A stretch of 64,000 bases of DNA from Octopus vulgaris (taxonomy: Eukaryota), in the NCBI GenBank assembly GCA_951406725.2, contig OX597814.1:19654001-19718000 (forward strand), given 5' to 3'. Each line of letters starts with the position of its first letter. Within the stretch, counting starts at the first letter, position 1. A model generated the notes under the pieces. It saw only the letters and a program-made list of their open reading frames with translations. It was not told the origin of the DNA and did no database searches. The position numbers and the translations under genes are program-made. Shown piece by piece: positions 2,385 to 58,900 of this stretch.

Positions 2385-2594
2385 CAAACATATAAGGCAT
2401 GGCCATAATAGGACATCCGACTCACTAAAAAGAGCAGCTACACTCCAAACCACTAATAGTTGTAATTCTGAAATGGAAAGAGAAATAAAAACGTTTACCC
2501 TCTCCATTCTGGACTATGCATAGTTTCGGCAATCTTTTGTAAATAAATTAATTTATTTTAATGTATTTACCACTGGCGTTGCCAGTGGTAAATA
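2385..2594 (-). mobile_element. 5'-truncated PLE pLTR with the 3' half of a hammerhead and an inverted 5' end
   Basis: Minus strand GGCAA...TTGCC-GAAAC-TATGCATA-GTC (palindromic stem III, GUC site); the CUGANGA core is replaced by a 14-bp fold-back (2564-2594); flanked by (TA)-rich tracts. Confidence 0.65.
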
Positions 2595-2879
2595 ATATAT
2601 ATAAATATATATAAATATATAAATATATATATACATATATAAATATAAATATAAATATAAATATATATATATATATATATATATATATATATATAGTTGG
2701 AATTTACAAAAAAAAACATATATAAATATATGTATGTATGTATGTATGTATGTATGTATATGTGTTTATGTATACCATTGCCTTATAAATGTACGAGTAT
2801 GAATACAAATGTGTGTATTGATTTGCAAGCAAAAATTTTATACACTAAAAATGGGAAAACAGACACACACATACACACA

Positions 2880-3081
2880 AACAGGCAGACAGACAGATAT
2901 ACAGATGATAGACAGACAGACAGACAAGCAGACAGACAGACAGACAGACATACAGACAGACAGACATACAGACAGACAGATAGTTAGATAGATAGATAGA
3001 TAGATAGATAGATAGATAGATAGATAGATAGATAGATAGATAGATAGATAGATAGATAGATAGATAGATAGATAGATAGAT
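2880..3081. repeat. (CAGA)n/(TAGA)n microsatellite
   Basis: Direct reading. Confidence 0.95.
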
Positions 3082-3389
3082 GGAACAGAATTGGGCAAAA
3101 ATGACTTATCTTGATAACAAGAAAAGAGCACCCACTTGAAACTAAAATCGAATACTGAATGGGTGACAGGGTCAAAAGTGAAGGAGAAATACAAGAATAC
3201 GTTTAAAATAACACTGAAGTAATACCGAGCGGAATGGTGGCGGTTTGGGGTTTGGGGTGTGTTGTTGGAATTTATTGAAAGAAGGGATTGCGGCAAAAAG
3301 AAATCGAGTGAAGACAAGGGAGAAATGAAGTGGCGGTTGATGGTTACTTACTTCAAGATGAAGGATCGTAAGCTGTCTGGGAGGTATGC

Positions 3390-3790
3390 GCATGTGTATA
3401 TATGCATATATATGTGTGTGTGTGTGTGTATGTGTGTGTGTTTGTGTGTGTGTGCTTGTGTGTGTATGTAAGTATATATGTATATATGTATGTGCACATA
3501 TATATATGTATATATATATATGTGTATATATATATATGTATATATATAGATGTCTTTATATATTTCATATATGCGTATGTATCTATGTATGTACTACGTA
3601 CGTACATACATACATACATGCATGCATACATACATAGATACATACATACAAACATACATACATACATACATACATACATACATACATACATACATACATA
3701 CAAACATGCATACATACATACAAACATACATACATACATACATACATACATACATACTTACACATGTATGTATGTATGTATGTATGTATG
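3390..3790. repeat. Compound (TG)n/(TA)n/(TACA)n microsatellite
   Basis: Direct reading. Confidence 0.9.
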
Positions 3791-4178
3791 AGTGTGTATG
3801 GAGACGGTTCTTTGCGTATGGTTATTAGGAAATGCGAAGCGTGAAAGACACAAAGAAGGAAAGTGAAGGAAATAAAGCACGAAGAAAGAGAGGAAGGAAG
3901 GAAGGAAGGAAGGAAGGAAAGGAAAGGAAAGGAAGGGCGTAAAATAATATAACAAGAGAAGGGTAAAATAAAAAATTAACGAAGATAATGGGAAATGTGA
4001 ATGATTGACAAATGAAATTGAAAAATAACTTGCTGAAAAGAAAATGAGTTGCTTAAGGGAATGTGAAATAGAGAGAACTTATATTGTTGTACGGTGATAA
4101 TGGCTGATTACAAGGAAGAAGATCGATATATGAAAAAGGTAATACAGTCAGACTGACAAACAGGCACACAGACACATA

Positions 4179-4383
4179 AATAGATAGATAGATAGATAGA
4201 TAGATAGATAGATAGATAGACAGATAGATAGACAGATAGATAGACAGATAGATAGACAGACAGATAGATAGATAGATAGATAGATAGGTAGGTAGATAGA
4301 TAGATAGATAGATAGATAGATAGATAGATAGATAGATAGATAGATAGATAGATAGATAGATAGATAGATAGATAGATAGATAG
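4179..4383. repeat. (TAGA)n microsatellite
   Basis: Direct reading. Confidence 0.95.
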
Positions 4384-4870
4384 AGTGATTGATTGACTTC
4401 TATATAGATGCACAACAAACATGCATAGACGTGTCACATTTCGAAGGTTATGTATTTGTAATTAAAAATAAAAGGGCAAGAGATAGTTAGAAAACGCCCG
4501 ATGAACAAGACTCTTAAATTTCCCAAGACTAGTAAGGCTTTTAAACCCCAAGATACGAACGAAAAATGTCAACTGCATCACGTTTCTATTAAAAATACAA
4601 TACGTGTGTGTAATTAAGCAGTTACCGAAAAGGTTATCAATACATCACCTTCTGATGTGACAGGAGCTTTTTTACTAACAATACACATCATCCGTAAAGG
4701 AAAAAAAAACGGACTGGTTCAGAATTAAAAACAAAATACTATTGATATCATTAGTCTGTTACCAATTTGAGCTATCCGACTGTGGACATGCTAGTGCCAT
4801 GCCATCTATATATACCGTTCCATTTCGGTATTTGTTGAACAAGGAAGAATAATGTTTTTTCCCTCGTAAT

Positions 4871-55416: not shown

Positions 55417-55637
55417 GAGGTGCGTAGCTTAGTGATTAGGGTGTTGGATTCATGATCGTAAGATTGTTGTTTCGATTCCTGAACTGGGCGACGCGTTATT
55501 GTTCTTGAGCAAAACACTTTATTTAACATTAGTTCAGTTCACTCAACTGGTAAAATTGAGTAATCCTGCGATCGACAGGCGTCTCCTGTAGGGAGAAGAT
55601 ATATACTCCACAGAAACAGGGAAACCGGCCCTATGAG
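55417..55637 (+). mobile_element. Old tRNA-derived SINE with conserved central core (Meta/CORE-like)
   Basis: GGAGGTGCGTAGCTTAGTGATTAGG head, TTCGATTCC, GTTCTTGAGCAAAACACTTTA core, CAGAAACAGGGAAACCGGCCC tail. Confidence 0.65.
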
Positions 55638-56182
55638 TTTGTATGTAAACTTTCCAAAGGCAACGGCTAAGGCAGTAGGTAATTTCCAATGGCAACGGCT
55701 AAGGCATCTGGTAACTAAGTTGAGAAAGAGAGATAAACTCTATTTATTCATTTTTATTTTATTCATGTATTTATTTTTTGTCATTAGTACAAAATGTCTT
55801 AAGATTTCTGAGGCTTTTATTTTTACTTTCAACTACGTAAAAAATAATTTTTTCCAGCACATTCCACCTCACCAAACTGTTCACTTACCTGCCAATCAAT
55901 TATGATCTTGCTGGACTAAAAATGGTGTTGAAGACGATTTAATCAAACGTATACTAATGTAATCCTTATTGTCCTTTCTACACCTTGATGATTTTCCTTA
56001 CATGGTATTTAAAATGCAAAATTATATATTTATATATGCTTTGTAATTTTCATCGTGTTTCTGAAATGAAACAATTGTGGGTGAATATGTTGATTAATTA
56101 ATAAATGAATTTGCATCCATTAGGTCTCTCTGTTTTCTACCTCCATAATAATATTTGATATTTTACGATATTTTATATAATA

Positions 56183-56579
56183 CTAGCAGTATCGCCCGGC
56201 GTTGCTCGGGTTTGTAAGGGAAATAACTATATAAGCATTTTTAGAGAGTTATAGCCAAAAAATAGCAAAAAAATGCATTAAAAATGGAAAAGAAATGATG
56301 GTAATTTTTTTTTAAATCGTTGACTCATCGTAGACATTTTTAGAGAGTTACATCCCTTTATTTAAAAAATATGCGTTAAAATGGAAAAAAATGATGTTAA
56401 ATTATTTTTAAAATCGTAGACTCATCGTAGACGCGTGCTAATACCCAGAAGGGCTCGATATGAATCACGACTATAAGATACCCGGTTTTGGTTAAACTGC
56501 ACCGCAAAATGTGGGAGTAGTTAGGAATCTAAATCATAGGAGACAGACACTCACACAACTTCAGTTTTATATATATAGA
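56183..56579 (-). mobile_element. Complete non-autonomous Helitron (397 bp)
   Basis: Minus strand A|TCTATATATATAAAA ... CCCGAGCAACGCCGGG-CGATACTG-CTAG|T. Confidence 0.88.
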
Positions 56580-58283
56580 TATTCATTCAAGAAATATCGC
56601 TTCAAAATATAATATATTAAAGCAGTGTATTTTGGGAAAAATATCTCTATAAGCGGTTTAGATATATCCTCATTGTGACTATATATATTACATCTCTGTA
56701 TGAGTTTGTGTGTGTGTGTACGTATATGAATGTAGCTACGAATGCCTGTATATACGGATGTATGATATATACGCAAACAAGGATACGTGGGCGTACTTAG
56801 TAACATTTCTACATCTGTACTCATATAACTCAATCACATAATACACACACACACACGCACACACATATATATATATATATGTGTGTGTGTGTGTGTGTGT
56901 GTGTGTGCGTGCGTGTGTGTGTGTGCGTGTGCATGTGTGTGTGCATGTGCGTGTGTGTGTGTTTGTGTGTATTATCTCATTTTTCCTCCACGTTTCTGCA
57001 TAACCCCTCTCTCTCCCTCTCTCTCAATTTATAAATGTGCATTCTGTAAGTCCATACGTATCTATAAATGTATGTTTGTATTTATTGATGTATGTATGCA
57101 CGAGTATATACATCCACACACACACACAAACACACACATATATATATATATATATATATATATATATATATATACGTACACTGTAACATTTTTATATATT
57201 TGTGGGAATGAATATATATATATATATATATATATACATTTATATATATCTATATATATACATATAAATTTATATATATATATATATATACATATCATGC
57301 ATATGCATATATCCATTCATATATATATGAATTATATATGCATAAATATATAAATATATATTATATACACACGTATATATATTTTTGTATGTATATATAT
57401 ATGTGAATATATACATACACACATATGTTTGTGTATATATATATATATATATATAAATATATGAATATGTATACATATATATTTTAACAAACACACACGC
57501 ACACATACATATGTGTATATATATATATATATATATATATATATATATATATATATATATATATATATATATATATATATACATACATATATACTTATGC
57601 GATACATATTCTTGCAATAACAACAGTAAGACTCAGATTTTCTGTTGGTCTTCAGCCTGCTTCTGAACAGACCACCACCGATGACATAACTTTATAAAGA
57701 TTTATTTCACATTCTTCCCTCTAGGCATATCATTTCACTCTAGATTCAGTTTTAAACCAAATTCTTCACCTTTCCTATGTATATGCATATGTCTATTCAT
57801 GTTCATCTGTCTACATATTACATAACCACATACACATATACTCACATACAGCACATGAATAGACATATAACACACACATGGACATGTACGTATGTAATAT
57901 ATATATGTATGTATGTATGTATGTATGTATGTATATATATATATATATACATATACATATACATATACATATATATAGTAGTATGCACAGCTACCTCACC
58001 CTCACTCTTTGCATATATAGATAGATATATATGTATACATATGTATATATGTATATATATATATATATATATATATATATATATATATATATATATATAT
58101 ATATATATATATATATATATATTACCTCAGCATCCAATTTTCCTCATTCTACATTGAGAGAAGAAAGAGATGGACGCTTCAATTCTATGCTGCTGCCGCA
58201 TTATGTCGTACGTGAATGAGAGGATTTGCATCCCCAACCAAGAATTTTTGATGTAACACATGTCCTTGCGGAAGCTGTTGTGC

Positions 58284-58361
58284 GCGGCTGAAGAAGGCCA
58301 CAGACATACATTATGCATTGTTATAAATCTGTCTAATAAAGGCCCGAAACATATGTACCGC
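58284..58361 (+). ncRNA. Type I hammerhead ribozyme with intact core
   Basis: GCGG-CTGAAGA-A-GGCC-[41 nt including ACAGA/TCTGT]-GGCC-C-GAAAC-ATAT-GTA-CCGC; cut after 58357. Confidence 0.85.
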
Positions 58362-58822
58362 TGAATCCTTCGCATCATGTTTTTATTTTATTTTGATCAA
58401 TTTACTCCACCACCTACACCACCAAACGGTATACACAGGTGCTTATAATTATCAAGTACTCACCCCGAATTTCTATACTCAATATATATATATATATATA
58501 TATATATATATATATATATATATATATATATATATATATATATATATATACACAGGTGCTTATAATTATCAAGTACTCACCCCGAATTTCTATACTCAAC
58601 TATATATATATATATATATATATGCTTATAATTATCAGTACCACCCCGAATTTCTATACTCAACTATATATATATATATATATATATATATATATATATA
58701 GTTGAGTATAGAAATTCGGGGTGAGTACTTGATAATTATAAGCACCTGTGTATACCGTTTGGTGGTGTAGGTGGTGGAGTAAATTGATCAAAATAAAATA
58801 AAAACATGATGCGAAGGATTCA

Positions 58823-58900
58823 GCGGTACATATGTTTCGGGCCTTTATTAGACAGATTTATAACAATGCATAATGTATGTCTGTGGCCTTCTTCAGCCGC
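58823..58900 (-). ncRNA. Type I hammerhead ribozyme with intact core (sense to the PLE ORF)
   Basis: Reverse complement of 58284-58361. Confidence 0.85.

Follow-up and report, generated by a model that had tools for sequence, protein, structure and literature searches.

The window analysed here, a 64-kb stretch of the Octopus vulgaris genome, contains nine sites that are minimal type I hammerhead-ribozyme sequences, with self-cleavage predicted from their letters. An earlier note on this DNA had claimed nine hammerhead or half-hammerhead sites in eight sequence families; all nine were located at the positions it gave, and they cluster into eight high- or mid-copy repeat families. Full motifs occur in families A (19129–19167, + strand, core CCGACGA), C (46794–46841, +, core CCGATGA), D (53857–53900, +), G (26242–26117, −, with a stem II of 99 nt) and B, which is present twice (58900–58823, −, and a second copy at 58284–58361, +). 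Family J is represented by a half motif (2583–2507, −) and families E (16217–16235, +) and K (7960–7977, +) by 3′ halves, and four further 3′ halves absent from the earlier note lie at 19107–19123 (−), 19053–19069 (−), 24802–24819 (−) and 45360–45377 (+). Five of the nine window sites are truncated, deleted or mutated. The site at 7884, described before as a degenerate motif, does carry a GAAAC-type 3′ half, but its proposed 5′ core (CTGATTA, 7890) is unlike the homologous core; in an alignment read by eye, its relatives have a CGATGA-type core in a stretch missing from the window copy, which is therefore a 3′ half. Each motif ends in GAAAC as claimed, with GGAAC in the 46794 motif, but the latter (46826) is a copy-specific mutation, GAAAC being found in 18 of 20 loci of that family. 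In the 19129 motif, the 5′ strand of stem I originates at an inversion junction and is mismatched at one position.

In seven of the eight families, paired stems I and II frame the core, family K being too decayed to judge; stem I differs in sequence between the seven families with a full motif and in each of them forms at least 4 bp. Families B, D and J carry all the expected core letters (C3-U4-G5-A6-N7-G8-A9, G12-A13-A14, A15.1-U16.1 and H17), whereas C4 in place of U4 is the majority letter in families A, C and G and in the sister family F; U4C is a known weakened natural hammerhead variant (PMC3088659). A mismatch or extra purine occupies the base of stem II in families C and D. Stem III comprises 1–2 bp and its loop is absent or palindromic and able to dimerise, as in the minimal hammerheads of Penelope-like elements (PLEs); the computed self-duplex of the palindrome reached −5.5 to −17.3 kcal/mol in five families, and loop III of family A is a 5-nt near-palindrome. 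MFE folding of the motifs at 19134 and 46798 did not return the hammerhead fold, and CpG-type decay was apparent in hammerhead cores.

Family B is represented by a 5′-truncated Hydra-type PLE, identified by translation and tblastn, that occupies 58701–62310 (−) and ends at a (TA)n tract. This copy retains the C-terminal part of the reverse transcriptase (RT), a CxCX5C linker and a GIY-YIG endonuclease (about 62310–60811) and a 2.1-kb 3′ UTR, with one frameshift near 61420; its endonuclease part is identical at 201 of 205 positions to an intact 836-aa open reading frame (ORF) elsewhere. The type I hammerhead in its 3′ pLTR (58823–58900, −) reads GCGG, CTGAAGA, a stem II with a 51-nt span, GAAAC ATAT GTA and CCGC. 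A second, short copy (58122–58482, +) lies tail-to-tail with the first, and 64–66-bp repeats of the family B terminus between (TA)n tracts fill 58483–58700. Of 1653 candidates in a similarity search, 40 were scored and gave 53 matches, the best of them 99–100% identical. Open frames of 842 codons were found at four places, and family B is contiguous with an intact ORF in several loci; at locus L274 a hammerhead precedes the ORF by 250 nt and the pLTR appears again beyond it, so that a single RT and GIY-YIG ORF is flanked by motif-bearing pLTRs, as in EN+ PLEs. Pfam did not recognise the PLE ORF, and assignment was made by motifs. Compared in this way with C-terminal EN+ PLEs of the Hydra clade (Craig et al. 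2021, PMC8557442), the L274 ORF shares DKT, the CxCX5C linker, CxxC and CxH around the endonuclease end, the absence of CCHH, a canonical hammerhead and insertion into (TA)n; unlike that clade, for which RWK and a length under 3 kb are given as general, family B has RWA, is about 4.7 kb long and is young with intact ORFs. The search bearing on this placement returned 374 relatives at 1e-30. The protein motifs suggest that family B, which is young and has intact ORFs elsewhere in the genome, is a Hydra-type element.

The 3′ UTR of a Hydra-type PLE of family C (45682–46906, +, including the hammerhead) matches at 83% a locus, L281, whose GIY-YIG remnant is 1.1 kb upstream of the homologous motif, with further relatives at L112/L280, and an endonuclease precedes the motif in two independent loci. 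Family A appears as a short 3′ end (19030–19272, +) whose hammerhead has a stem II of ACG-GGAA-YGT, and its inverted partial copies carry the 3′ halves at 19107–19123 and 19053–19069; at one locus (L282) the motif is linked to a decayed RT-EN ORF, from which a short TA run separates it. RT/GIY-YIG ORFs lie upstream of the motif in four of the eight families (A, B, C and E); none could be tied to G, K, D or J. Observed directly were 3′ ends that are fixed within each family and lead into (TA)n, often a second copy in inverted orientation, and the pLTR-ORF-pLTR layout of family B. The 3′ end fell 120–130 nt beyond GAAA in 25/25 copies of family A and at two words 10 nt apart in 19/25 of family B, and an inverted partner lay within 1.45 kb upstream in 19/25 (A), 10/20 (J), 9/25 (B), 6/20 (C), 4/23 (D), 2/20 (G) and 2/25 (E) cases. 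5′ truncation, an inverted adjacent copy and an optional tail, features of EN+ PLEs, were all found in these families.

Families D and J consist of short non-coding units, for which the absence of a linked ORF is expected. A full-length permuted copy of the family D unit (about 352 nt, retrozyme-like) lies at 53776–54128 (+), and in its hammerhead stem I has 6 bp and stem II a C/A mismatch at its base; a period of 350–360 recurred in 98 cross-copy matches, and locus L039 is a natural tandem with two ribozymes 352 nt apart. Four sets of assembled contigs covered the family D copy partially, with no spanning piece and no back-joint. The family J copy (2380–2592, −) is truncated within stem II and has a 9-bp fold-back; other members of the family carry the complete hammerhead, its palindrome 8 nt long, within a permuted non-coding unit of about 460 nt. 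Like metazoan non-LTR retrozymes, among which mussel units measure 350–390 bp (PMC7229834; bioRxiv 10.64898/2026.07.22.740005), D and J combine a short non-coding unit and one type I hammerhead with tandem or permuted copies; unlike them, they occur, among the loci examined, mostly as dispersed 0.7–1.8-mers with PLE-type inversions and (TA)n ends rather than in long arrays. A family D-related fragment at 24566–24881 (−; 3′ half at 24819–24802) has an inverted partner, 96.5% identical, at 45298–45613 (+; 3′ half at 45360–45377). The family G copy (25700–26944, −) is at least 1.2 kb long, with core CCGAAGA and a GGCC/GGCC stem II around a long insert. Family K is an old, decayed 3′ half (7950–8004, +; GAAAC AGCT GTA at 7960–7971) with 11 short matches besides itself. 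No ORF was found for G or K within the 1.5–8 kb examined per locus; family G adjoins the endonuclease of another family in L089/L285.

A strict hammerhead descriptor gave four matches in the window, where 30 local dinucleotide shuffles gave 0.07 on average (maximum 1). In a genome sample of 800 kb it gave 27, and 1, 1, 0, 3 and 0 in five shuffles; both counts lie far above background. A descriptor under which stem II had to pair from its very first position found just one window motif, and the one used allows one optional base on each side. Extrapolated from the 800-kb sample, canonical-core motifs number roughly 90,000 genome-wide, in line with the very large complement of ribozymes, as predicted cleavers, that the earlier note expected if the density of the window is typical, and hammerhead-shaped motifs in the whole genome likely total about a hundred thousand. 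U4C occurred in 10/27 sample matches, and loop III was palindromic in 10 of the 18 loop-bearing ones, although the descriptor makes no such demand. In the sample, C6 and G6 cores stayed at background (1 match versus 0–4 shuffled, and 0 versus 0–2), and U3-A8 cores gave 14 matches, mostly doubtful, versus 1–5. Most motifs had also been placed about 70–420 nt upstream of (TA)n. (TA)5 lay within 450 nt downstream of eight of the nine sites (64–402 nt; 25% of random window positions), the 53856 site having no (TA)n for 2.7 kb downstream, and of 21/27 sample matches (27% background, P = 7e-8); it stood upstream of 10/27. Stem covariation within families, the test proposed in the earlier note, was weak, since only a few master elements gave rise to the copies; the informative signal lies between families and subfamilies. 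Rfam returned nothing in the window at gathering thresholds, and the best 150 of 444 rows of its E-value listing, dominated by microsatellite matches to miRNA models, held no hammerhead family. Rfam and CUGANGA descriptors overlook roughly 10^5 motifs in this genome, a density of 34–46 per Mb. The claim that ordinary repeat annotation would miss this population thus applies to the ribozyme but not to the elements, which are annotated as Penelope-like families: an octopus annotation lists 31 recently active ones, and the words hammerhead and ribozyme are absent from it (PMC13282606).

The 3′ end of a Neptune-type PLE of family E, bearing the 3′ half of a loop-less hammerhead, lies at 16213–16325 (+). 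An RT thumb and GIY-YIG precede the motif in the four loci translated, in which all ORF pieces are broken; these broken copies show a CX2-5CxxC linker and a C-terminal CCHH endonuclease, as in the Neptune clade. Like Neptune/Nematis PLEs (PMC8557442), family E has the RT thumb, a CX4CxxC linker, two Cys inside the GIY-YIG core, a C-terminal endonuclease, a loop-less hammerhead downstream and microsatellite insertion; unlike them, it has an A6U core and only broken ORFs. Linker and endonuclease point to a Neptune-type element, a term that here spans Neptune and Nematis. The CUGUNGA core was present in 15,730 exact copies versus 188 with A6, and of 55 copies chosen by flank homology 53 had U6 and none A6. 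Across subfamilies, core variation was confined to the two free positions, N7 (T17/G22/A9/C7) and H17 (T28/A22/C2), with no G among the 52 of 55 copies that have a letter at H17. A minor letter exceeded 20% in 0/21 constrained columns versus 41/121 flank columns (Fisher P = 5e-4, a value that overstates independence because the subfamilies are related). The stem II loop and an extra A, which catalysis should leave free, were also invariant, so part of the conservation may reflect protein recognition or short divergence. A core-opened permuted reading, with a downstream CYGA as the true core, was rejected by eye because its stem I fails to pair at the first position, whereas the upstream TTT/AAA pairs.

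Upstream RT/GIY-YIG ORFs, the pLTR layout, permuted units and 3′ ends in (TA)n uphold the PLE or retrozyme origin and (TA)n targeting proposed earlier. Very probably, the motifs are type I hammerhead sequences, with predicted catalysis, in the 3′ terminal repeats of several PLE families and in short non-coding units, and are dense through nearness to the presumed start of reverse transcription: at 35–400 nt from it, nearly every truncated copy keeps one. On published PLE biochemistry, the RT-endonuclease would nick (TA)n and prime at an internal TA-like word of its own RNA, and reverse transcription would often stop early or switch strand. With only a palindrome left of stem III, a lone genomic copy would be a poor self-cleaver; cleavage would require either a tandem transcript containing two motifs or help from the protein of the element. 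The product would be RNA of unit length, circular in D and J and about 352 or 460 nt long; the D and J units are likely copied by PLEs.

Chance matches in an AT-rich, repeat-rich genome would account for loop-less 3′ halves alone (GAAACGTH, 4 observed versus 3.2 shuffled) and perhaps a few of the 27 sample matches (shuffle mean 1.0). As a general explanation, however, chance is already refuted by the full-descriptor counts, the differing yet paired stems I of seven families and the exact family words (15,730 and 11,695 copies; reversed controls 0), and we give it practically no weight. It is improbable that every family is a non-autonomous retrozyme or SINE-like unit spreading via circular RNAs, with nearby ORFs as separate insertions into shared (TA)n tracts. 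D and J are indeed permuted units without an ORF, most A and E copies span just 150–300 bp, and nested unrelated insertions are common, as for family G beside a foreign endonuclease; yet family B runs continuously into an intact ORF, C and E share 1.1–1.7 kb from endonuclease to motif across independent loci, and copy lengths are graded, as expected from 5′ truncation. Host domestication for gene regulation is very improbable: the sheer number means that some copies will fall in introns or UTRs, but individual copies decay, as the damaged window sites and CpG-type core changes illustrate.

The departure from published systems is the A6U core of family E; the other seven families fit known kinds. 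A6U probably slows or switches off self-cutting. All CUGA single mutants are low in activity (PMC9901934) and A6C falls below 0.1 per min (PMC3088659), which, with the invariant stem II loop and the finding that the ribozyme of one PLE, PAc, is dispensable for insertion in vitro (PMC11167929), lends some plausibility, short of an even chance, to a catalytically dead hammerhead in family E, and perhaps in the families with U4C or mismatches, that persists solely as a folded structure for the RT-endonuclease to grip or as a means of RNA pairing through the palindrome. By contrast, variation falling on N7 and H17, with G absent at H17, is the pattern that catalysis imposes, and A6C ribozymes cleave well in Mn2+ (PMC7151607). 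The masters of family E, having kept the whole fold with U6, would most likely encode a ribozyme that is greatly slowed, is helped by protein and continues to be selected for. More tentatively, and as a possibility we rather doubt, this Neptune-type lineage of about 60,000 copies may have evolved a working U6 hammerhead, one of several weakened cores (with U4C and stem II base mismatches) favoured in the most successful PLEs, with cleavage gated by an element protein, dimer formation or a non-magnesium metal; in that case the genome would amount to a mutational scan made by nature, showing which features a PLE ribozyme cannot lose. The natural A6C hammerhead of phage Bcep176 (PMC3088659, PMC7151607) likewise has a pyrimidine at core position 6, but it is a single phage example with C, unlike the U fixed here in a lineage whose copies number in the tens of thousands. 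For the open question of what hammerheads contribute to PLEs (PMC8557442, PMC11167929), this genome offers a young intact Hydra-type element and non-coding units possibly mobilised by it, along with sister lineages whose cores have A6 or U6, each at 10^4 copies, making the importance of cleavage directly testable.

Hammerheads in metazoan PLEs, their palindromic stem III and (TA)n targeting have been published (PMC4209133, PMC8557442, PMC7229834). Shared with those are the type I layout, a 4–6-bp stem I, an absent or palindromic loop III, an extra nucleotide after A9 (here in family E and its sisters), many families per genome, and mostly solo or inverted copies with few in full PLEs. Unlike them, the octopus motifs are about ten times the reported 2,000–9,000 per genome, as counted with differing descriptors; their stem II inserts (51, about 65 and 99 nt) exceed the published descriptor; U4C is frequent; and A6U is fixed in family E, against A6 in every motif compared in the supplementary alignment. 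The axolotl genome is about 32 Gb in size. It holds 126,247 motifs, one family having a stem II base mismatch (PMC7229834; bioRxiv 10.64898/2026.07.22.740005). Over that genome size, the octopus density is about ten times the axolotl's.

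All nine hammerhead or half-hammerhead sites claimed in the earlier note were found in the window sequence, and they are borne by eight repeat families: A (19129), B (58823 and 58284), C (46794), D (53856), E (16224), G (26117), J (2512) and K (7884). The window (G000:C1:19654001-19718000; 39% GC, microsatellite-rich) comes from a 2.80-Gb assembly of 227 contigs. We searched it with a descriptor comprising stem I of at least 4 bp, CYGANGA, stem II of at least 3 bp with one optional base on either side and up to 160 nt, GAAA, a paired 15.2–16.2 and UH. Four matches were obtained; 30 local dinucleotide shuffles gave 0.07 on average. 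The 19129 motif escapes the descriptor because of a single stem I mismatch created by an inversion junction, and the 46794 motif because of a mutation in that copy, GAAAC being present in 18/20 family C loci. The motifs at 2512, 7884 and 16224 are hammerhead 3′ halves, outside the full descriptor, as are four additional 3′ halves at 19053, 19107, 24802 and 45360. A 5′ half at 44700-44735(-), CTGATGA A GG.TGGAGGGTATATCAG, represents a further hammerhead family whose full form is present in the genome sample.

That sample was made up of 80 stretches of 10 kb each, taken at round positions: 60 came from contigs C1-C29 and 20 further ones from C1-C5. It contained 27 canonical-core matches, compared with 1, 1, 0, 3 and 0 in five shuffles. 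The density of 33.8 per Mb extrapolates to approximately 94,500 motifs genome-wide (95% Poisson range 62,000-137,000), or about 91,000 less background, and the window is typical of the genome (4 matches versus 2.2 expected, P 0.17). By homology, the sample held 17 copies of E, 10 of A, 6 of C, one each of B, D and G, and none of J or K. (TA)5 lay within 450 nt downstream of 21/27 matches (random positions, 27%), and 10/27 had it upstream. Both the very large complement and the position upstream of (TA)n proposed previously are thus borne out, the former as a motif estimate from this sample. For the giant squid, 235 Rfam hammerhead matches are reported (PMC6962438). The sample also included a few convincing hammerheads with a U3-A8 core and palindromic stem III, at loci L151, L152 and L334.

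Translation of the family B element (~62310 to ~60811, minus strand) revealed the end of a reverse transcriptase (RT), a CNCRCASKC linker and a GIY-YIG endonuclease domain (EN), followed 3′ by a 2.1-kb UTR, the hammerhead and (TA)n. Among 19,622 candidate relatives of this endonuclease, the best 150 are 80-100% identical and include four with 842-codon open frames, borne out in the locus sequences; counted from Met, the protein has 836 aa. At one locus (L274), a hammerhead lies 250 nt 5′ of the ORF and the repeat recurs 3′ of it, yielding a pLTR-ORF-pLTR arrangement. As the Hydra clade of Penelope-like elements (PLEs) is defined in PMC8557442, family B agrees with it in having DKT, CxCX5C, CxxC and CxH and no CCHH, but differs in having RWA (RWK in Hydra) and a 4.7-kb unit. 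Another Hydra-type PLE (L285:3299-7800; SDKT, RT, EN), arranged as an inverted pair, carries its own hammerhead family 550-570 nt past the ORF. At two independent loci, the remnant of an endonuclease precedes the family C motif by 1.1 kb, and family A has a decayed RT-EN upstream at one locus. Walking upstream from family E led, in the four loci translated, to an RT thumb followed by a CX4CxxC linker and a GIY-YIG with two Cys, all broken; these protein features point to a Neptune-type PLE. For family G, which extends over at least 1.2 kb, and for K, the sequence examined showed no ORF link. At 15620-15870(+) are the decayed remains of a GIY-YIG from a different PLE family; a TA tract separates them from the 16224 motif.

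In families D and J, sequence 3′ of the motif matches sequence 5′ of it, with periods of ~352 and ~460 nt, respectively. At one locus (L039), the distance between two family D motifs is 352 nt; the copy in the window amounts to a single whole permuted unit. Judged by this organization, D and J are non-coding, retrozyme-like units. The earlier reading of a PLE or retrozyme population was correct as a whole: ORF links support PLE origin for B, C, A and E, and the short permuted units of D and J fit the retrozyme part.

Within each family the 3′ ends are constant and run into TA: 25/25 at +120-130 from GAAA in A, 11/25 and 8/25 at two words 10 nt apart in B, and ~+245 and ~+415 in G. Inverted partners were present at 19/25 loci for A, 10/20 for J, 9/25 for B, 6/20 for C, 4/23 for D, 2/20 for G and 2/25 for E, these loci being best-scoring matches rather than a random draw; the 14 family A partners with an end read stop ~85 nt before the ends of the direct copies. 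The families share the published PLE pattern of inverted 5′-truncated copies and optional tails (PMC8557442), which has been attributed to internal initiation at AT-rich nicks (PMC11167929). We propose that PLEs would be transcribed in tandem, that (TA)n would be nicked and an internal TA-like word just beyond the ribozyme used for priming, and that copying would stop early or switch strand, so that nearly all copies would keep the ribozyme or its 3′ half. The large complement would then be a by-product of motif location, and lone motif copies are probably silent. Palindromic stem III is computed to be able to pair between two motifs, as reported for PLE hammerheads (PMC4209133, PMC6765202). 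Taken as a population, the motifs add a new, dense example to an association that is already known.

Family E departs from the canonical core at position 6. Its exact word occurred 15,730 times in the CTGTNGA form and 188 times in the CYGANGA form (reversed controls, 0); with a free core there were 17,844 matches, with T in 96 and A in 2 of the first 100 listed (hand count). The U6 core added 10 sample matches, 9 from family E (shuffles, 0-2). To avoid selection on the motif, we gathered 59 copies via flank homology and removed four without the 5′ part; in the remaining 55, position 6 was T in 53, C in one and G in one, N7 took all four letters, and H17 was T, A or C, never G. A minor letter exceeded 20% in 0/21 core and stem II columns versus 41/121 flank columns (P 5e-4, ignoring kinship of subfamilies), and three subfamily majorities differed in 39/121 flank columns and 0/21 constrained columns. 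Since the stem II loop is likewise constant and the subfamilies are kin, these data show motif constraint, not catalysis. A sister family, F (first listed 26-mer word match, G000:C1:183404-183429), has the same stem II and a CCGACGA core, with C4, in 11,695 exact 26-mers; as it keeps A6, U6 is likely derived. Family F copies with CTGACGA are consistent with CpG decay.

Core variation extends beyond family E: U4C is present in 10/27 sample matches, and families C and D have, at the base of stem II, either a mismatch or an additional purine. Natural A6C and U4C variants are described as weakened (PMC3088659, PMC7151607), a mutational scan recorded low activity for CUGA mutants (PMC9901934), and one PLE hammerhead cleaved only with its own protein (PMC11167929). 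We somewhat favour a slowed, protein-assisted ribozyme as the predicted state of family E. A dead scaffold is a less probable but serious contender; neutral loss seems improbable. Among the titles and passages covered by our literature search, with most subscription papers outside its coverage, there was no account of these families or of an A6U PLE hammerhead. Lünse 2017 reportedly covers ~150,000 stem III-reduced variants and may list core variants. What would interest a specialist in ribozymes, and is easy to test, is that a very abundant lineage has A6U fixed in its core.

The window also contains LINE reverse transcriptase fragments and one Tc1/mariner transposase fragment (654-1436(+), 7998-9764(-), 62390-64000(+) and 29371-29946(+)); the last LINE (62390-64000) meets the family B element in a (TA)n tract, either truncating or adjoining it. 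Long trinucleotide tracts, including (GCA)195, occupy 5508-6154, 12735-13114, 32518-32726 and 44768-45249. A 10-kb tandem array of 15-bp-based, ACC/CAT-rich units (33228-43189) has stop-free frames of >1000 codons on both strands, one of them Thr/Ile-rich, and is a candidate satellite or mucin-like exon. Two pieces, of 316 bp (96.5%) and 128 bp (92%), each occur as inverted duplicates on either side of it, at 24477-24881 and 45298-45769, 21 kb apart.
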